Of a stretch of DNA of 64,000 nucleotides, positions 2,573-63,764 are shown piece after piece; the stretch's first letter is position 1; every line of letters starts with the position of its first letter. Location: IMG/VR virus record IMGVR_UViG_3300026043_000014, positions 6,588 through 70,587 of that record. One strand, 5' to 3'. Both the position numbers and the translations under genes were made by a program. This DNA comes from a virus (Duplodnaviria > Caudoviricetes). The notes under the pieces are model-generated. The model saw nothing but the letters and a program-made list of their open reading frames with translations, was not told the DNA's origin and searched no databases.

Positions 2573-4969
2573 TTGATCAAGGGTGGATCACGAAAAACAA
2601 CTCTGCCAGGATGGCGGACTCCGTGTAGAGAACCCCTTCACCCGGCGACCTTCGGAGCAACCTTGCGCGTCTCACTATTCCCGAGCCTCGAAGACCCACA
2701 CGTACGCCCCCTCGAGACCGACTGGGGCGGCATCGCAGAAGAATTAACTAGCAAGCGCATCGTCACCGACGACAAGAAGGCCGTACCGCTCTTCTCGCCG
2801 GCTGAGTTTCGCGAAGACTATCGGACGAAAAAGAACGTCGAGCGCGTACACTTCTTGGTGCTCGACTACGACGCGCTCGATCTAGCGGGCGCGATCGCGT
2901 CGATGGAACGGATCGCGTCGTACCGACGCATCCTCTATTCGACGCATCGACACGATCCGCGAGAGCCTAACGGCCAACGCTTCCGTGCGCTCGTCGCGAT
3001 CGATCGTCCGGTACTCGGCCGAGAATGGCCGTCATTCTGGAGTGCCGCGCGAGCGGATCTCGCTCCTCTCTCAGACAGGAAAGATTCCGACGCTTCGCGC
3101 GCGTACTTCTTGCCTTCGTGCCCGGCGGATAGAGCTGAATTCGCGTTCGCCGAATCGCACGACGGCGCTGTGATCGAGGTCTCTAGGTACATCGGCGCCG
3201 ACGTCCCAGAGGCCCCCACGGACGGCGTGTTCCCCGTGACGCCGGAGTACCTACGCAAGCTCGGCACGTCGCTCAGCAAACGAAAATCACTCGGCGATTC
3301 GCAAATAGGGGAAATCCTTCTTCTCGTCGCGCAGGGGCTCCCCTACGCGACCGAAGGCGAGCGAGACGACGTCACGTGGAGACTCTGCGTCCGGCTCGCC
3401 AAGGAAATCCCCGAGGCGAACGCGGAATCTCTCGGCGCCGTCTTCGCGGCGTCGTTGTCACTCATGGGCGCCGAAGCGCCGACGCCCGCGATGGTCGTCG
3501 AGAAGTTCTCCCGCGCTCGCACGCAGAACGCCGAAAGATCGCATGCCGCGGAAGACTGGCGCAAGGCGCGCATCCGTTCGATCTTTTTCGGTAGTCGTGA
3601 AGAGCCATACACCGACGCCGAGATCGCCACATGGGGCATTCGCTCAGACGAATGGCTTCTCACGTTCGAAAAAGAGCTCTTCGTTGCCTTCGATGGTTCG
3701 TACGTCGGGCCTCTCGTGCGCGCGCACGAAGAAGCGCTCCAGTGGCTTGCCCCAGCTCCGTTTTCGATCGTTCGACTCAGAGAAGACGGCACGATCGTCT
3801 ATCGCACACTCAAGGAAATGCTCGTGGAACAAGGAAAGCAGATCACCAAGCGCGTCGTGTGGATCGGCGGCCAAGGCAACACCCGTTACGATCGCGACAC
3901 CGACACGCTTCACACGTTCGCCTGCCCACTCAGATCACTCGAGCCCGCGTACGATGCGAACGTCGATGCCTTCCTCGCAGGGATCGCGCGGAGCTCGAAA
4001 AGCAAGCTCGAGACGTGGCTCGCTGCGTGCATCGATCCAGAGATTGCACTGCCCATGCTCTGGCTCATGGGCGATCCGGGCGTGGGCAAGTCGCTGCTCG
4101 CCGCCGGAGTCGCGCGTCTGTGGACCAAAGACGGCCCCGGCGACGCTCACGCGGCACTTGGCACAGAGTACCAGGACGCGCTCTTGCGTTGCCCTCTACT
4201 GCTCGCTGACGAACACCTGCCCCGAGACTTCCGGGGTCACGTCGTGACGGAGAAGATTCGATCGCTGCTCACGAGCCCGACGCACCACGTCAACAAGAAG
4301 TACGGCATGCAAGGGCGGGTTACTGGTATGGTGCGGCTCATCGCAGCGACGAATGCCGGCGCACTATCAGGGCTCTCACTGGCGCTGAAACCGGAAGATT
4401 TTTCGGCCATTGCCGAGAGGATCCTCATGATCCGCTGCAAGGGGTCGCCGCGCATTGCCTCGGATCTCGCGGCGTCGTTCGTGAAAGACGATCGCATTGC
4501 CCGACACGTGCTCTGGCTTGCGTCGAAGTACGCACGATCGACCACCGATCGCTTCGCGGTCACAGGCGACGCCGAAGACCTGGTCACCGAGCTTTTCGTT
4601 CAGAGCGAATGGCGCGCGGAGGTTCTGGAATGGATCTTTCTCGCGTTGGCAGATCCGCAGCGGCACTTCATGAAGTGGAAGTACCCGGCAATCGTCGCGA
4701 AAGACGGCGTTGTGTATATACGTCGTAAAGACATCGGGAAGTGTTGGTCCGACTACTACAACGACAAACTCGATGCTGCGCAGCAACGGAAGGCCGCCGC
4801 GGCGGCGCGCGATCTAATCAACGGTGGACGGATGAAGTTCAAAGGGAACAAATACACCTCGGTGGATCCAAAAATGCTCGAGGCGTATGCGAAAGCCTCC
4901 GAAGAGGAGGTTCCGAGCACGGAAATGTTGGAGATCGTTTGTAAAAATTCCCCCTACGGGGCGAATTGA
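2573..4969 (+). CDS. primase-polymerase (AEP-like) fused to a D5/VirE-like P-loop helicase; true start may be about 30 codons downstream
   Basis: LVLDYD (DxD) and YSTHRH motifs N-terminally; Walker A GDPGVGKS and Walker B LLLADE C-terminally. Confidence 0.85.
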   Translation: MIKGGSRKTTLPGWRTPCREPLHPATFGATLRVSLFPSLEDPHVRPLETDWGGIAEELTSKRIVTDDKKAVPLFSPAEFREDYRTKKNVERVHFLVLDYDALDLAGAIASMERIASYRRILYSTHRHDPREPNGQRFRALVAIDRPVLGREWPSFWSAARADLAPLSDRKDSDASRAYFLPSCPADRAEFAFAESHDGAVIEVSRYIGADVPEAPTDGVFPVTPEYLRKLGTSLSKRKSLGDSQIGEILLLVAQGLPYATEGERDDVTWRLCVRLAKEIPEANAESLGAVFAASLSLMGAEAPTPAMVVEKFSRARTQNAERSHAAEDWRKARIRSIFFGSREEPYTDAEIATWGIRSDEWLLTFEKELFVAFDGSYVGPLVRAHEEALQWLAPAPFSIVRLREDGTIVYRTLKEMLVEQGKQITKRVVWIGGQGNTRYDRDTDTLHTFACPLRSLEPAYDANVDAFLAGIARSSKSKLETWLAACIDPEIALPMLWLMGDPGVGKSLLAAGVARLWTKDGPGDAHAALGTEYQDALLRCPLLLADEHLPRDFRGHVVTEKIRSLLTSPTHHVNKKYGMQGRVTGMVRLIAATNAGALSGLSLALKPEDFSAIAERILMIRCKGSPRIASDLAASFVKDDRIARHVLWLASKYARSTTDRFAVTGDAEDLVTELFVQSEWRAEVLEWIFLALADPQRHFMKWKYPAIVAKDGVVYIRRKDIGKCWSDYYNDKLDAAQQRKAAAAARDLINGGRMKFKGNKYTSVDPKMLEAYAKASEEEVPSTEMLEIVCKNSPYGAN

Positions 4970-5790: not shown

Positions 5791-5862
5791 CGGCGTTTCG
5801 GTTCGAGAACGGGGTCGGGGTCGTCCGGGATCGAAAACGAAGCCACGGGGCTCTGAGAGGCC

Positions 5863-5892
5863 ACAGCCGCGCGGGGCTTCGAATGCCGCGAC
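5863..5892 (+). CRISPR. orphan CRISPR repeat (3' 30 nt of the array repeat)
   Basis: ACAGCCGCGCGGGGCTTCGAATGCCGCGAC, 29/30 to the array consensus; 37 nt upstream of a GTG at 5930. Confidence 0.9.
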
Positions 5893-14565: not shown

Positions 14566-16296
14566 GTGAGTTCCGATGATACTGTAATTCTTTGCGAGGC
14601 GGAGGTCGTCGAGACCGGCACAGAGCTTGCCAAAGCGCCTTCCGCCGCGCTGGTGGCCGCTTTAGAGCGCGCCGACGAGTATCGACGCCACACGAAGGCA
14701 GAGGCCACGGAGGCGGCGTACGCGAGCGACTGGAGGCGTTTTCTGACCTGGGCGGCCTCGGCCGGTGCCGCCCCGCTCCCGGCGACGCCGGAGATCGTCA
14801 GCGCGCACCTGAGTTGGCTCGCGGAGGAGGGGTACAGCGTCGCGACGCTGGAACGCTTTTTGGCGGCCGGGAGCCACTTCCATCGCGCCGCCGGGTCCGA
14901 CTTTCCGCGTAACGCCTACGCGGTTTCGGAGACGTTGAAAGGCATTCGGCGACGGGTAGGCGTAAAGCGCACCAAAAAAGCGCCCCTGGGGCTCACGGCG
15001 CTCTCCGAAGCGTGCACACGCGTTCTTCGGGAGAGCGACGGCGCCGAGGCCCCCGAGCGACGGCTGGCTCTTCGAAACCGAGCCATGTTGACCGTCGGTT
15101 GGTTCTGCATGCTCAGGAGCGCCAATCTGGTTGCGATCCGCCGAGAGCACGTACGTTTGGTGCGCTTCGACGGAGACGGCTGGATCGACGACGAGGATCG
15201 ACCAACTGGATTGATCGTGCACCTACCTGAGAGCAAGACAGATCAGTTGAAAGAAGGGCGCGACGTCGCAGTACACGCCCAAGCGGATGAGACGGTGTGC
15301 CCGGTACGCGCGCTCAAAGACTATTTGAGCGCTGCGTCGATCGGTCCCGAAGATCGGATCTTTCCCGTGAGTGAGCGCACGGTGTCGCGCCTTATCAAAC
15401 GTCTGGCGGCGAACCCGGAGCACGGGCACAAATCGTTGAAAGAGATCGCGCGCTGCGATTCATGCGCTACGGCTGCGAAGCGATTTGCGAGTCACAGCCT
15501 TCGTCGAGGTGCGGCGACTGCGCAAGCTCAGAGAGGTATCTCGGAGCGCGAGATCATGCGGCAAGGGGGTTGGAAGAACGAGCGTGTGATGCGCGGTTAC
15601 ATCGAGCACGCGACGCTTTTTCAAAACAACCCGACAAAGGATCTCTCAGGCGTCGTTGAAGAAAGAGGACGAATGGTCGCAGGACATGAGCAAGCACTTG
15701 AAAATCACTTCGACAAAATCACGAAGAAGAATCCCGAGTGGGTGAATGTCGTGAGCGAGATCCGCACGAAACTTTTCGACGGCGCCTATCATCAATGGCT
15801 CGTAGACGCTTTCTTTCAGAAGTGGAGAGGAAATCCGTCGCTCGCAGAGGTGTATTGTTTCAGCCAGCTGTACTCTAGCTATTTGAAAGGTGAAATCGGA
15901 ATCTTTTCCGTAGGAACGTCGTCATGTCCGTTGCCGGACAAGAACAAGAGCGGCAATCAAGCCGTTCTCGACGGTCTCCCCGATCTGTTTGAAGCTCAGT
16001 TCTTCGGCGGAATTGGGGACAACGACGGGAAGTTCGAGTGGAAACGTCCAGTGAAAATCACACGCTGTTTCGCCAATGCGGACGGTACGCAACGCGAAGA
16101 ACCTTGGGAGTGTCCTCCGACTTGGCTTCCGTTGGAAGTCGGGTACACAGCTGTCAGCAAAACGTTCGAGCACGTGGTCTCAGAGTTCGGAGTTGCTCGG
16201 TGGCCTTACGACTACGAAATGATCATCGTGCTCGTTACACACCCTTCTCTCCGCGAACGGAGACGAGAAAAATTGCGTCAGATGGGGTTTGCATGA
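14566..16296 (+). CDS. Cre-like tyrosine recombinase/integrase with an approx. 200-aa C-terminal extra domain
   Basis: SAM-like N-domain (AYASDWRRF); catalytic R (MLRSANL), K (SKTDQ), HSLRRG, GGWK, VMRGY; likely start GTG at 14566. Confidence 0.92.
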   Translation: MSSDDTVILCEAEVVETGTELAKAPSAALVAALERADEYRRHTKAEATEAAYASDWRRFLTWAASAGAAPLPATPEIVSAHLSWLAEEGYSVATLERFLAAGSHFHRAAGSDFPRNAYAVSETLKGIRRRVGVKRTKKAPLGLTALSEACTRVLRESDGAEAPERRLALRNRAMLTVGWFCMLRSANLVAIRREHVRLVRFDGDGWIDDEDRPTGLIVHLPESKTDQLKEGRDVAVHAQADETVCPVRALKDYLSAASIGPEDRIFPVSERTVSRLIKRLAANPEHGHKSLKEIARCDSCATAAKRFASHSLRRGAATAQAQRGISEREIMRQGGWKNERVMRGYIEHATLFQNNPTKDLSGVVEERGRMVAGHEQALENHFDKITKKNPEWVNVVSEIRTKLFDGAYHQWLVDAFFQKWRGNPSLAEVYCFSQLYSSYLKGEIGIFSVGTSSCPLPDKNKSGNQAVLDGLPDLFEAQFFGGIGDNDGKFEWKRPVKITRCFANADGTQREEPWECPPTWLPLEVGYTAVSKTFEHVVSEFGVARWPYDYEMIIVLVTHPSLRERRREKLRQMGFA

Positions 16297-16858: not shown

Positions 16859-17594
16859 CCAGCAACAGCCGCGCGGGGCTCCGAATGCCGCGACCCCCGC
16901 ATACCGGGTCAGCGTGTACGGGTTGCCCCCCAGCAACAGCCGCGCGGGGCTCCGAATGCCGCGACATCGAGGTCGCGAAGTACATCGGCGCCGACGTCCC
17001 CCAGCAACAGCCGCGCGGGGCTCCGAATGCCGCGACGAGGACGACGACGGCGAGGGCGGCGAGGGCTGCGGGCCAGCAACAGCCGCGCGGGGCTCCGAAT
17101 GCCGCGACGCATGCGATCGGTCGCGGGCGAAAAAAATGTAATCGACCAGCAACAGCCGCGCGGGGCTCCGAATGCCGCGACCGCCGGATGGGGTGTCGCG
17201 TTCACCACGGGCACGACAGCCAGCAACAGCCGCGCGGGGCTCCGAATGCCGCGACGAGACGTCCCAAGCGATGCTTCAAGCCGAACTCGAGCCAGCAACA
17301 GCCGCGCGGGGCTCCGAATGCCGCGACGTACTCAGCACGGCTAGTACGTCATGCGGGGGCACACAGCCAGCAACAGCCGCGCGGGGCTCCGAATGCCGCG
17401 ACGATTCCGTCTTCTCTGCGTCGGACAGCCTCCGCATCCCCAGCAACAGCCGCGCGGGGCTTCGAATGCCGCGACCAGAAGAGGCCAGATCACGAGCCAG
17501 CAACAGCCGCGCGGGGCTCCGAATGCCGCGACGGCCGAAGGCCTGCGTCGATAGTCATCCAGCAACAGCCGCGCGGGGCTCCGAATGCCGCGAT
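16859..17594 (+). CRISPR. CRISPR array, 11 repeats and 10 spacers, type V-like repeat
   Basis: 36-bp CCAGCAACAGCCGCGCGGGGCTCCGAATGCCGCGAC at 16859, 16930, 17001, 17073, 17146, 17220, 17292, 17367, 17440, 17497, 17559. Spacers are 35, 35, 36, 37, 38, 36, 39, 37, 21, 26 nt. Last repeat ends GAT; a partial remnant ends at 17629. Confidence 0.98.
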
Positions 17595-17662
17595 GAGATG
17601 GGCGGACGCCGACTCCGCCATGCCGCGACCAGAAGTGACCATCGCGAAATCGGACCGTGACA

Positions 17663-43113: not shown

Positions 43114-43301
43114 GTCGCAGCATTCGAAGCCCCACGCGGCTGTTATGGAAATCGTCCGCCGGTCGCGGCTGTCGTGGAAATCCATCCGTGACTTCTTCTT
43201 GTCGCGGCGTTCGGAGCCCCGCGCGGCTGTTGAGCGGTGCTCACGTGACTCAACCGGCTCGCGGCGTCGCGGCATTCGCAGCCCCGCGCGGCTCACGGAC
43301 A
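43114..43301 (-). CRISPR. degenerate mini-array: three repeats (43266-43301, 43201-43236, 43114-43149)
   Basis: Cores match the main repeat with 1-3 substitutions; gaps of 29 and 51 nt; the 51-nt gap holds a collapsed repeat remnant (ACAGCCGCGAC). Confidence 0.85.
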
Positions 43302-44030
43302 CACAGCAATGCTACCGGAAAAACCGGTGGTACCGCAGGCTTTACCGATTTCGCATTGACTCAAATCTGTGCAGGTCCCCACCTGCGTGGCCCCTTCCCA
43401 GCAGGTCCACAGATTGGCGGAATCGCACGGCTGAAAAACCACGGCGTTGCCTTTGCAACAAATACCGTAGCACTCTCCGTCGCCGCACCACGGCTTGTCT
43501 CCCCCGCAGGTCACACCAAGCGACCACGATCCCGAGGCGTCGCAGATCGTCTGTTGCCTTGCTGTTGAGCACGATCGATCGCCCGGTTTACACTCGACGC
43601 ACGCGCCATCGAGGCACCAACCTTCGCACGGCGCGCCGTTGTCGAGCCACGAGCCGCCGACGCACTTCTGTCGCTGCGCGCCGATGCACTGAGTCTCGGC
43701 GGTCGTGCAATCGCCCGCGGCCCCGCCGGTCGATGCGCCGCCGGTCGATGCACCGCCGGTCGATGCACCGCCGGTCGATGCACCGCCGGTCGATGCGCCG
43801 CCGGTGCCTCTTCCCGAGGTCCCGCCGGTCGATGCCCCGCCGGTCGATGCTCCGCCGGTCGATGCGCCGCCGGTCGACGGGGCGTCAACGTCTTCCGTCG
43901 AGACGCCTCCGTCGATCTGAACATCTGCAAGCGGAGGCCCCGCATCGGCCGTACCATAAAGCCCTACGCGGAAAGCATCTCCATTCCCACAGCCGACGAG
44001 CAAAAGACCCAAGACGATTCCCATTTTCAT
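43293..44030 (-). CDS. myxobacterial-type lipoprotein with STGGA repeats and Cys-rich C-terminus
   Basis: LLLVGC lipobox; (STGG[A/T])n; repeated Cys motifs. Confidence 0.85.
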   Translation of the reverse strand: MKMGIVLGLLLVGCGNGDAFRVGLYGTADAGPPLADVQIDGGVSTEDVDAPSTGGASTGGASTGGASTGGTSGRGTGGASTGGASTGGASTGGASTGGASTGGAAGDCTTAETQCIGAQRQKCVGGSWLDNGAPCEGWCLDGACVECKPGDRSCSTARQQTICDASGSWSLGVTCGGDKPWCGDGECYGICCKGNAVVFQPCDSANLWTCWEGATQVGTCTDLSQCEIGKACGTTGFSGSIAVCP

Positions 44031-45828: not shown

Positions 45829-45865
45829 TTCCTCTTTCTTCGGCTACGCTGCTGGTTGCTGCGCT

Positions 45866-45893
45866 GTCGCGGCGTTCGAAGCCCCGCGCGGCT
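45866..45893 (-). CRISPR. orphan repeat core fused to the cas12 stop codon
   Basis: TAG-CCGCGCGGGGCTTCGAACGCCGCGAC, 26/28 to consensus; followed by 37 nt, then the ATG at 45828. Confidence 0.88.
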
Positions 45894-47685
45894 ATGCGAC
45901 CTTCCTCTTCTTCGCGCGATCGAGGATCACCTGGCGCGCGCCGTAGTCCTTGTCTCGGGCGCGTCCGCACTTCGGACAGACGACGATGAGCTCCGGTCCG
46001 TTCACTTCGAGAAGGCCGTCGCAATTCTTTTCCGGGCACTCTCGCGTCGAATTGTGTGCCGAGACCTCGACGACGGTGCCGAAACGCTTGCAGATAGACA
46101 CGAACTCGTACCGGGCCGTGAGATCGCGATTGGCCCTCTGCCGGCGCTTGCGCTCCTCTTTGATCTGCACCTGCTGGATCTGCTTCACGTTCTCCGCCTC
46201 GAACGCGAAGGTCGAGTAGCGTTGACGAAGCTCTCGGACGACCCCGATGTAGAGCTCCTTTCGGAGGTTCTGGAACCGCTTCCGTCGCTGTTCGACACGT
46301 CGTTCGTAGCGCATCTCCCAGCGGAGCCACGCGGTCTCCTCCTCGGTCTTCACGCCGCTGCGCATGAGCATCCGTCGGTAACCCCAACGATTCATCTTGT
46401 GCGGCAGCTTGAGCGCTGCTTTTCGTCGATCGAACATCTCGTCCATGCGACCCTTCAGTTCATCGATCTCGTCGAGCGCCTTGCGGCAGGCATTCGGGAT
46501 CAGGACTTCGCCGACCTGACCGTCGTCCCCGATCCATGCGAACGCACGGATCCCCTCGCGCCATCGATCGTGGCCGTGCTCACGGTGGCCCCAATCGAAC
46601 GCAACCGTTCCTCCGGACTTCGTCGGGACGAAATTCTTGCTCTTCGATTTCTCGATGTCGAAAGTAAGGCTCAGGCTGTACGACCAGCGCTCACCGTCGA
46701 TGCGCCGCGTGAGCTTCGCAGTCGTCGGCTTTTTCCCCTCAGGGATTTCGTGCCAGTTGTTGCACTCGGCCTTGAGTCGCACCCATTCGTCCTCGAGCCC
46801 GATGCGCAGCTCGATCGTCCACCACGGGGACGTGCGCTTGACGAGATTGATGGCAGCCCCGGGAGGTAGCTTGTGCCCCTGGAGCTTCTCCGAGGGGAAG
46901 CAGTCGACCACACGGTCGTCAACGCGGACCTCGGCAGCGGACCACGGCTCGCCACGACTGAGGATGCGAATGCCGACGGGATCCATCGCGAGAGACGTCG
47001 GATGGCGGAACTTCGGCCGGCGGATCTCCGCGGGCATCCCTTTCGCACGAAGCGATATCACGTCCCGACGGGCCTGATCGACGCTCTTGCAGAGCGCGTT
47101 CCACGTGCCCCAATAGATCCGCCTCTCGGGGGAGTTGTAGAGCTCCGTTCGATACTTCTCGCGACGAGACCGCCGTGGCGCCTTCGCGACCTTCGCCGCG
47201 TAGTGCTCGTCGGATTCGTCAGTCGTCAAAAGCGTGAACCTCTTCTCCCACGCCTCGTCCGTTTCACCTTTGCGGCGCTTCACTTTCGCCGCCGGCTTCG
47301 CGCGACGTCGGCGAACGGCCTTCGGTTCACCGACTTCTTCGTCGGCCCACTTGAGAGCCTCCTTCCAGCGGGGATCAGCGTTGCGGATCTTCCGGGCTTC
47401 TTCGAGCCGAATCTTGAGCTTCGCGGCGAGCTCCGGCTTGGGATCGGGGGCCCAGCGACCTTCTGGGGTGTGTTCGACCCTTTTCACTCGGCGCGCGAGT
47501 TGCGCAAGGATGCGCCCCGTGCGCACGATCCCCGGCGCGATCTCGTCAGCGGCCGCGTCGAGGATCTTTTGGTGCTCGGCTTCGAAGTCGAGGAGCCGAT
47601 GGTAGATCCATCGTGCGTTTCGGTATTCCTCGCCGAGACGATCTTCGTCTGAGAGGATCCTGGCCGGTCTGCTGAGTGTGATCAT
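45892..47685 (-). CDS. cas12m: compact type V CRISPR effector, Cas12m (V-M/V-U1)-like
   Basis: IYWGTWNAL...RAKGMPAEIRRPKF resembles Cas12m as I recall it (LYWASFN...RASGKPATLRHHRF). RuvC-I TVAFDWGHR, RuvC-II FAFEAEN, Zn finger and RuvC-III CPKCGRARDKDYGA; Arg/Lys-rich insertion; adjacent repeat. Confidence 0.8.
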   Translation of the reverse strand: MITLSRPARILSDEDRLGEEYRNARWIYHRLLDFEAEHQKILDAAADEIAPGIVRTGRILAQLARRVKRVEHTPEGRWAPDPKPELAAKLKIRLEEARKIRNADPRWKEALKWADEEVGEPKAVRRRRAKPAAKVKRRKGETDEAWEKRFTLLTTDESDEHYAAKVAKAPRRSRREKYRTELYNSPERRIYWGTWNALCKSVDQARRDVISLRAKGMPAEIRRPKFRHPTSLAMDPVGIRILSRGEPWSAAEVRVDDRVVDCFPSEKLQGHKLPPGAAINLVKRTSPWWTIELRIGLEDEWVRLKAECNNWHEIPEGKKPTTAKLTRRIDGERWSYSLSLTFDIEKSKSKNFVPTKSGGTVAFDWGHREHGHDRWREGIRAFAWIGDDGQVGEVLIPNACRKALDEIDELKGRMDEMFDRRKAALKLPHKMNRWGYRRMLMRSGVKTEEETAWLRWEMRYERRVEQRRKRFQNLRKELYIGVVRELRQRYSTFAFEAENVKQIQQVQIKEERKRRQRANRDLTARYEFVSICKRFGTVVEVSAHNSTRECPEKNCDGLLEVNGPELIVVCPKCGRARDKDYGARQVILDRAKKRKVA

Positions 47686-62884: not shown

Positions 62885-62940
62885 GTTGCGGCATTCGGTG
62901 CTCCGTCACGGCATTCGAAGCCCCGCGCGGCTGTTGTGCA
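62885..62940 (-). CRISPR. orphan repeat (62905-62940) plus an abutting half-repeat (62885-62904)
   Basis: CAACAGCCGCGCGGGGCTTCGAATGCCGTGAC directly after the TAA of 62941..63207, then GGAGCACCGAATGCCGCAAC (17/20 to the repeat 3' end). Confidence 0.85.
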
Positions 62941-63764
62941 TTACCGTCGACGTCGAAAGCGATTGGCGATTCGTTCCACATCCTTACGGAGCTTCGGATC
63001 CGTGAGCGTTTCGAAAATCGAGTGCGCGGCCTTTACCGTCTCGTCCTCGCTGTCGATGAGCCCATCGAGAGGGCTCGCGAGCAGATCGTGCTTCCGGATC
63101 AGCTTGATGGCCTGCATCGCAGCAGCGAGTCGTTCCTTGTCCGTCGTGCTGTCGTCGACTGCGAGTTCGATCAGGTCTTTGGCCTTCCGGCGTAGTTTGG
63201 CGCTCATTCCGGATCCTCCTCTTCGCTTCTGCGCTTCTTTCGTCGCTTCTTCTTCCGGCCGGGGCTTGCATCGAAGCGATCTGTGTACTCATCCATCATC
63301 GCGTCGGCGTACTCCGTAGCGACGTCTACCATGTCGTCAATGAGCTCTTCGGCGTCCTCGACGCTGTCGGGCTTCTCGTACACGCCGAGCGCGTCGTGTG
63401 TCCAGCCGACCCAGAGCTCGGCCTCTAGTTTGTTCGTTGCCATTCACGTACCTCCGTTGTCGCGGATCCACTCCGCTGTCTCTTTTCTGTTCAGCACGGT
63501 GACGGGAACGTCGATCTCTTCCGGATCGATCTCAGCGTCTTCCGCCCAAACGGCCATGCCGGCCGTTCGGTGAACACCGTCGAGAATGTCCGCCCCGTAG
63601 AAGCCACTCCCGATTAAGATCTTTCCCGGCAGCTCTTCGGGATCGAGTGGTTCGACGTTCGCAAGATACTCTTCCCACTCGGATGCTCCGCCGCCGAGAG
63701 AGTCGGGGGCAAGATCGACCAGATCACTCAACGTCATCGTCTCCTGCGTCATCCCCATCTCCAT
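62941..63764 (-). CDS. three small genes (62941-63207, 63204-63443, 63444-63764)
   Basis: Coupled; the last has a ParB-like LDGVHR motif. Confidence 0.6.

Follow-up and report, generated by a model that had tools for sequence, protein, structure and literature searches.

A 64,000-nucleotide stretch of DNA from a virus of the class Caudoviricetes (hereafter the window; positions 6588-70587 of the 70,587-bp IMG/VR record IMGVR_UViG_3300026043_000014) encodes a type V-M (formerly V-U1) CRISPR effector of the Cas12m family, an assignment supported by hidden Markov model (HMM) searches, profile comparison, the predicted fold and the CRISPR association of the protein's clade. The explanation that we favor, to which a probability of roughly 0.68 is given as a whole, is that this Cas12m processes its own guides and takes a binding role against related viruses, in a locus whose layout has been rearranged. 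The effector would most likely bind the last ~30 nt of the 36-nt repeat, folded as a pseudoknot, and would probably, by analogy with studied family members, cut its own guide RNAs from longer transcripts without a trans-activating CRISPR RNA (tracrRNA). On the same analogy, the following ~17-20 nt would serve as the guide for binding of double-stranded DNA (dsDNA), dependent on a protospacer-adjacent motif. Most probably the effector serves to compete with related viruses, whose essential genes would be blocked in transcription or replication.

Identification of the effector

The features of the effector gene that bear on its identity are as follows (ORF, open reading frame; pLDDT, predicted local distance difference test).

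45892-47685, minus strand: cas12m gene, 597 aa, including the TAG stop (ORF and translation)
47140-47334, minus strand: Arg/Lys-rich REC segment, residues 118-182 (a family feature; pLDDT 95-97)
46834-46953, minus strand: protein-specific insertion, residues 245-284 (a gap in >60% of homologues; predicted to be disordered)

The virus record carries 127-bp direct terminal repeats (DTRs; our own check) and has a completeness rating of 100%. That it is a complete DTR virus supports the effector's being encoded by the virus. The matches to the PHROG exonuclease, primase-helicase and helicase families fit a phage, as do a Dam-type methylase, a GH25 endolysin and a DNA polymerase A detected by Pfam. 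The same virus was found in five samples and was 100% identical around cas12m; these other assemblies therefore say nothing on selection. A first-pass annotation, made from the letters of the window alone, had begun the ORF at 45866. The gene is real, but the 26 nt beyond its stop codon belong to a repeat. Model searches for Cas1, Cas2 and Y1-TnpA gave no match in the whole 70,587-bp record, while the control genomes responded, and the earlier remark that tnpA, cas1 and cas2 are missing is borne out; as to the rest of an adaptation module, Cas4 was not searched for.

Pfam returned only PF07282 (Cas12f1-like TNB; E 2.3e-4, under the curated cut-off), a domain that is also recorded for most of the homologues, and NCBIfam had no match to the protein. 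Both are uninformative as to family, and PADLOC and a profile search of PDB sequences were needed. The best PADLOC model was Cas12u1 (6.2e-28, residues 123-593), so named after type V-U1, as V-M/Cas12m was formerly called (PMC11013384). A search of protein collections found more than 120 relatives at 34-61% identity, and a profile of 48 relatives was used against the PDB sequences. The top five matches were all Cas12m, among them UnCas12m4a (2.2e-22), the Cas12m of entry 23vw (1.1e-18), Cas12m2 (4e-13) and GoCas12m (1.2e-12); ISDra2 TnpB followed at 0.07. The protein in 23vw has 577 aa and was named "CRISPR-associated DNA-binding protein Cas12m" by its depositors. UnCas12m4a had the best E-value in this profile search, and the effector may belong to Cas12m clade 4.

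The AlphaFold2 model of the effector (pLDDT 88.6) was compared with known structures. Foldseek placed Cas12m2 and GoCas12m first (E ~1e-19), and VIA-align gave Z 19.9 over 487 aligned residues for GoCas12m and Z 19.5 over 488 residues for Cas12m2, against Z 17.2 over just 340 residues for TnpB. The modeled protein is thus of full Cas12m architecture, REC additions included, and is not half-way to TnpB. The block YWGTWN...GMPAEIRRPKF, which had been taken as Cas12m-like, has an equivalent in Cas12m2 and GoCas12m, to which it aligns. With the fold, the HMM and profile scores, the CRISPR association across the clade and the complete DTR record in agreement, the first-pass description of a virus-encoded Cas12m-like effector holds. 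Its further suggestion of a TnpB-to-Cas12m intermediate finds no support in the aligned lengths, which include the REC insertions, in the profile E-values (2e-22 for Cas12m4a vs 0.07 for TnpB) or in the ordinary arrays of the relatives. Members of the clade are encoded mostly on phage-like contigs, a part of which had been binned with Polyangiales genomes.

The Arg/Lys-rich stretch had been read as a long insertion. It is instead a conserved family segment: 120 homologues have it at the same 65-aa length and with a similar charge (Lys plus Arg 0.32, against a family median of 0.31), and in the alignment it falls on the REC region of Cas12m2 and GoCas12m that is rich in Arg. The sole large insertion peculiar to this protein, and the source of its extra length, is formed by residues 245-284, of which 252-282 have pLDDT <50.

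The main array and the repeat pseudoknot

16859-17594, plus strand: main CRISPR array, 11 repeats of 36 nt and 10 spacers of 21-39 nt

The main array lies 28.3 kb from cas12m, and 0 matches are expected in shuffled sequence. A second 70-kb assembly of the same virus, the only other one that spans the array, has an identical array with the same ten spacers. The distance of 28 kb given in the first-pass annotation is right but incomplete as a description, as there are seven further repeat units at five loci.

As judged by covariation, the 3′ ~30 nt of the repeat folds as a pseudoknot. Its helices pair positions 9-12 with 19-22 and 14-18 with 30-34; over 45 distinct repeat variants, 98.8% of the cells are paired, six of the nine pairs show compensatory changes, and none of 500 shuffles reached the observed covariation score. 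This fold agrees with the triplex-pseudoknot core of the GoCas12m CRISPR RNA (crRNA), and Cas12m proteins use a single crRNA of 50-60 nt, without a tracrRNA, that is processed independently of RuvC (PMC11013384). Every copy of the repeat that was found is co-directional with the surrounding genes, which is also compatible with an anti-repeat RNA. No family in Rfam matched in the window, and scans for promoters and terminators found no more than in shuffled sequence.

The repeat is tied to the effector by its position in related loci. A search of viral contigs with the single protein gave no match, and an alignment-based search of them gave five loci. At L002, L003, L004, L007, L008, L034 and L035, homologous repeats come immediately behind the homologous gene and have its orientation, an arrangement that links repeat to effector and fixes the direction of transcription. 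The related loci include three IMG/VR viruses, contigs of a Sorangium and of an Acidobacteria metagenome-assembled genome (MAG), and a contig of phage-like character that was binned with a Polyangiaceae MAG. The homologue at L003 was suspected of being broken and was found to be intact.

Several related loci have features of their own. At L004:11688-14089 (virus record G003), more than 30 repeats follow the cas12m homologue, nearly each a distinct variant; this array is unusually heterogeneous, and many of its repeat differences are compensatory in the pseudoknot stems. The homologue P0009 (59% identity), on a phage-like Logan contig of 78 kb, is followed within 8 kb by only one repeat unit (L035:9702-9737), a single-guide layout reminiscent of TnpB or TldR. 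At L006:10475-11250 (virus record G005, 152,857 bp), a 26%-identical homologue precedes three copies of another repeat, 27 nt long; the first stands immediately behind the gene and the other two behind the next ORF, such that the repeats flank a gene.

In the present virus, the last repeat of the main array is followed (17595-17640) by the remnant of a repeat 3′ end, ATGCCGCGAC, and then by CAGAAG..., a sequence similar to the beginning of spacer 9; this suggests a decayed duplicated unit. Short assemblies of the same virus from other samples (L042, L043 and L044) end within or just before the array, which may reflect either ordinary repeat-induced assembly breakage or heterogeneity of the array in those samples. 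Two small genes upstream of the array is a gene whose 576-aa product has a tyrosine recombinase (phage-integrase) domain (14566-16296, plus strand; taken from the gene calls of identical contigs). It may mean that the virus is temperate, or may be relevant to how the array moved.

Spacer matches

3173-3207, plus strand: match to spacer 2 in the virus's own primase-helicase gene (2573-4969), 32 of 35 positions identical (blastn-short E 2.8e-8)

The anti-sibling role in the favored explanation comes from spacer 2, a near-copy of part of the virus's own primase-helicase gene, whose product matches the PHROG primase and helicase families. The three mismatches, at guide positions 10, 12 and 14, are clustered and non-synonymous (AK to SR), and the 5′ flank of the site is GTG, which is non-T-rich. 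On the simplest reading, spacer 2 would have been taken from the essential replication gene of a sibling virus, from which the carrier's own copy has diverged; the match suggests that sibling viruses are targeted.

The exact 23-mer of spacer 2 had no match in viral contigs. The exact 20-mer matched a single metagenome contig (L026), which we take to be a chance match: the identity ends after 23 nt, and the site is in no open frame and lacks homology to this virus. When 95 spacers and guide-like segments of related arrays were compared with G000-G003 and L005-L008, no credible cross-target appeared except the self match of spacer 2. The comparison of the array with 301 Polyangiales genomes gave matches only to spacer 3 (17037-17072), and these are not meaningful. 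That spacer is of low complexity and rich in GAC/GGC; it matches acidic or glycine-rich coding repeats in 237 of the 301 genomes and also matches this virus itself, and is unusable for inferring a host or a target.

Repeat units outside the main array

The further repeat units were located by searching with the 3′ 24-28 nt of the repeat. They are listed here with the guide-like segment that follows one of them.

45866-45901, minus strand: solitary unit at the cas12m stop codon (28-nt core at 45866-45893)
45829-45865, minus strand: 37-nt guide-like segment from the stop-codon repeat to the ATG of the next gene, containing that gene's ribosome-binding site
43114-43301, minus strand: degenerate mini-array of three repeats, 2.6 kb downstream of cas12m on the same strand
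5857-5892, plus strand: solitary unit downstream of the primase-helicase gene
62905-62940, minus strand: solitary unit immediately behind the TAA stop of an ORF of 88 aa (62941-63207)
3779-3806 in genome coordinates, minus strand: solitary unit just outside the window

At cas12m, the core of the repeat starts at the AG of the TAG stop (...gcaTAGCCGCGCGGGGCTTCGAACGCCGCGAC), so that the stop codon begins 1 nt before the core; the fusion of a repeat to the stop codon, noted in the first-pass annotation, is therefore real. This unit has two mismatches against the array core, both in the loop, and its pseudoknot pairs are intact. The 37-nt segment behind it has no second match in the virus genome. 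With its 20-nt guide and at most one mismatch, 401 Polyangiales genomes gave four matches, against nine for a reversed control, as expected by chance.

In the mini-array, the first repeat overlaps the TGA stop of the ORF at 43293-44030, and the last ends 38 nt ahead of the ATG of the GH25 endolysin. Its 51-nt gap (43150-43200) holds a collapsed repeat, ACAGCCGCGAC; the gap was probably once two spacers and a repeat, before an internal deletion. Two stop codons (the TAG of cas12m and the TGA of ORF 43293-44030) thus lie inside a repeat core, and a third, the TAA at 62941, immediately precedes a repeat. In three cases the next start codon comes 37-48 nt past the repeat. The scattered units lie between co-directional genes: one follows the gene of a DHH protein and precedes that of DNA polymerase A, one stands between cas12m and the 81-aa gene after it, and the mini-array separates a lipoprotein-like ORF from the GH25 endolysin downstream. 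The stem substitutions in these units, four in number, all give G-U pairs, which keep the pairing in the sense RNA only. Solitary units are also present in relatives: two at L034, a lone unit after the gene at L035 and three units around an ORF at L006. The relatives G001-G003 have no scattered units.

The proposed ancestral layout, in which the array directly followed the gene, would have been rearranged in this virus to leave one repeat fused to the stop codon, the main array 28 kb off on the other strand, and the other units in short gaps between co-directional genes. At L004 the order is cas12m, array, Dam methylase. Here it is cas12m, one repeat, four small ORFs, methylase, lipoprotein-like ORF, mini-array and endolysin, and the block with the main array is inverted relative to L004 and 28 kb away. 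The C-terminal tail of the effector (...RAKKRKVA) also diverges from the family consensus (...RAKEALANRAA), which is consistent with a deletion having fused the gene with its first repeat.

The scattered units may serve as guides, may act in cis as RNA elements, or may be debris. In one alternative, all of them, the stop-codon unit included, would be inert recombination leftovers of a gene-adjacent array, and guides would come from the 11-repeat array only. Several observations speak for this: four small ORFs stand where relatives have an array between cas12m and the Dam methylase, blocks are inverted relative to L004, the C-terminal tail differs as expected from a deletion into the first repeat, a repeat has collapsed in the mini-array, and the guides of the scattered units have no detectable target. 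Yet the pseudoknot pairs are preserved in every scattered unit, the units are always sense-oriented and at gene boundaries, and such units recur in other phages of the clade. This alternative is plausible but less likely than not.

The RuvC triad and DNA cleavage

46594-46596, minus strand: codon of D364 (RuvC-I, AFDWG), D in 120/120 homologues
46198-46200, minus strand: codon of E496 (RuvC-II, FAFEAEN), E in 115/115 homologues covering the position
45952-45954, minus strand: codon of D578 (RuvC-III, RDKD), D in 117/117 homologues covering the position
45967-46038, minus strand: Zn-ribbon/TNB segment (C550, C555, C570 and C573; PF07282, 2.3e-4), cysteines conserved

The motifs AFDWG, FEAEN and RDKD and the Zn finger, as first read from the translation, are present as D364, E496, D578 and four cysteines. 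The triad is D-E-D in all 115 homologues that are complete at the three positions (120 were aligned). In the profile alignments, UnCas12m4a and 23vw have D-E-D at the same positions: D364 aligns with D in both and with H of Cas12m2 and GoCas12m, and E496 aligns with E of UnCas12m4a and with D of Cas12m2. Cas12m proteins form four clades, and D-E-D is normal in clades 3 and 4 (PMC10442227). The triad types by clade are HEK/HQK, HDD, DED/NED and DED/DND/NED, so that the present triad is that of clades 3 and 4 and not the HDD of clade 2.

From the intact triad, the first-pass annotation had argued for a catalytically competent effector. Bigelyte et al. reported four D-E-D Cas12m variants without dsDNA nuclease activity, and purified MsCas12m, also D-E-D, showed no cleavage, whether target or collateral (PMC11013384); in Cas12m2, conversion of HDD to DED did not restore cutting (PMC10442227). 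Because the published D-E-D Cas12m proteins bind without cutting, an intact triad is no evidence of cutting in this family, and the argument falls. The accompanying background statement that characterised Cas12m proteins have non-canonical RuvC residues was incomplete: D-E-D members have been characterised as well, though it is correct that the characterised proteins do not cut DNA.

The effector could nevertheless be a dsDNA nuclease that attacks competitor or host DNA, either as an active V-M relative or as an intermediate between TnpB and Cas12m. Invariance of D364, E496 and D578 in every homologue that covers them (115/115) would be expected of one, cutting would be an effective weapon against rival phages, and a 2026 myxophage preprint proposes nuclease activity for the D-E-D protein MvCas12m, from its residues alone. 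The same strict conservation is, however, compatible with metal-mediated binding of the non-target strand, by analogy. Apart from the cleavage assays and the HDD-to-DED conversion cited above, the solved D-E-D protein in 23vw was named a DNA-binding protein by its depositors, and the effector has kept the Arg-rich REC segment, which is used for tight binding. The notion of an intermediate also has the full Cas12m architecture and the true arrays of the relatives against it. By comparison with its studied relatives, active dsDNA cleavage by this effector seems unlikely, though its probability is by no means negligible.

Possible action on the virus's own RNA

That repeats stand at gene boundaries raises another alternative, in which the effector and the scattered repeats would also act on the RNA of the virus itself. 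By binding or cutting pseudoknots between co-directional genes, the effector would split polycistronic mRNAs or mask the ribosome-binding site of the next gene, and cutting of the stop-overlapping repeat would leave a stop-less cas12m mRNA, a form of negative feedback. Such a role would account for the pattern of stop codon, repeat, 37-48 nt and next start codon, always on the sense strand, for the two stop codons within a repeat core, and for stem substitutions that retain pairing in the sense RNA only. It would also fit the recurrence of solitary units at L034, L035 and L006, the position of Cas12m cutting a few nt into the repeat, and the scan in which no terminator-like site lay between cas12m and the next gene. 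Against it, G001-G003 do without scattered units, and the system therefore does not need them; the units could be recombination debris; and four G-U outcomes are weak statistics (~1 in 16, assuming that all were transitions). On this reading, Cas12m would be a weapon and, in addition, a factor in RNA processing and regulation that times or tunes the expression of the gene following cas12m, of DNA polymerase A and of the GH25 endolysin; judged from the arrangement of the repeats, this is doubtful. If true, CRISPR repeats would here have been co-opted in nature as cis-regulatory elements of mRNA.

Discussion

Several observations count against an effector that processes its own guides and binds the DNA of related viruses. 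The exact protospacer was found neither in viral or metagenome contigs nor in related viruses, and just one of the spacers provides a target lead. The array is identical in independent assemblies, with no sign of ongoing uptake or turnover of spacers. The strict D-E-D conservation (115/115) would fit an active nuclease too. Finally, the structure-based identity to experimentally tested Cas12m proteins is only ~17-18%, and the behavior of those proteins may not transfer to this one.

The closest known systems are the Cas12m proteins of clades 3 and 4 (UnCas12m4a in PDB entries 23vu and 23vv, 23vw, and MsCas12m). Like them, the present effector has D-E-D at the aligned positions and a Zn ribbon, falls in the same size range (577-614 aa), and is CRISPR-associated without adaptation genes; they are also its best profile matches (2e-22 and 1e-18). 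It differs from them in its distant identity, in belonging to a clade on phage-like contigs, and in that its repeat units are partly scattered, one being fused to a stop codon. With the clade-2 proteins MmCas12m2 (8HHL) and GoCas12m (8PM4) it shares the full-length fold, the Arg-rich REC region and a short crRNA with a pseudoknot core, but those proteins have H-D-D RuvC residues and are encoded on chromosomes of Actinomycetota beside ordinary adjacent arrays.

Single repeat-plus-guide units away from a main array are also familiar from the solitary repeat units and mini-arrays of adaptation-less mobile elements and from delocalised V-K crRNA. Unlike those elements, this virus also encodes the effector, and its units stand at stop codons or before start codons, on the sense strand.

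TnpB with its omega RNA, and likewise TldR, have the RuvC/WED/TNB core, a pseudoknot scaffold that begins at the 3′ end of the gene and, as at L035, a single-guide layout; they differ from the present system in their transposon features, a much longer scaffold, the lack of true arrays across a clade, and a REC that is ~200 residues smaller. An IS200/IS605-type TnpB whose omega RNA overlaps the 3′ end of its gene can be dismissed: the guide scaffold that begins at the stop codon does recall such an overlap, Pfam detects only the shared TNB domain and the TnpB fold is common to both (Z 17.2), but the virus genome has no Y1 transposase, the 597-aa protein carries the REC insertions of Cas12m, the handle is ~30 nt and not ~150 nt, multi-spacer arrays occur throughout the clade, and the profile E-value is 0.07 for TnpB against 2e-22 for Cas12m4a.

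Virus-encoded D-E-D Cas12m is already known from computational reports. In 2024, 21 viral Cas12m candidates were described, 43% of them D-E-D (PMC11576732), and a 2026 preprint described a D-E-D Cas12m, MvCas12m, in the myxophage MV-1, with a probable Polyangiales host (bioRxiv 10.64898/2026.09.14.751636). As in the present virus, these are virus-borne and keep D-E-D, with no cas1, cas2 or cas4 reported and no tracrRNA found. They differ in length (610-999 aa), in the residues of the triad (D305/E463/D555) and in arrays described as gene-adjacent. Known by computation only, they have no scattered or stop-fused repeats and no self-like spacer described; the stop-codon-fused repeat, the placement of repeats at gene boundaries and the self-like spacer are what is unusual here.

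For genome editing, the effector offers nothing beyond the Cas12m proteins already in use: it had been put forward as a compact editing candidate, yet 597 aa is the usual size of a Cas12m. What it adds to the family is a well-populated, phage-borne branch of at least 120 relatives, all of them D-E-D. Were one member to cut DNA, this would settle whether clades 3 and 4 are nucleases and would explain the retention of the triad. The near-match of spacer 2 is a clean lead for virus-versus-virus targeting by a DNA-binding effector. The residues of the active site contribute less to the interest of the locus than do the scattered repeat units. Placed at gene boundaries, with one fused to a stop codon, and recurring in related phages, these units are what is least ordinary about it, and they could point to CRISPR repeats being used in regulation.

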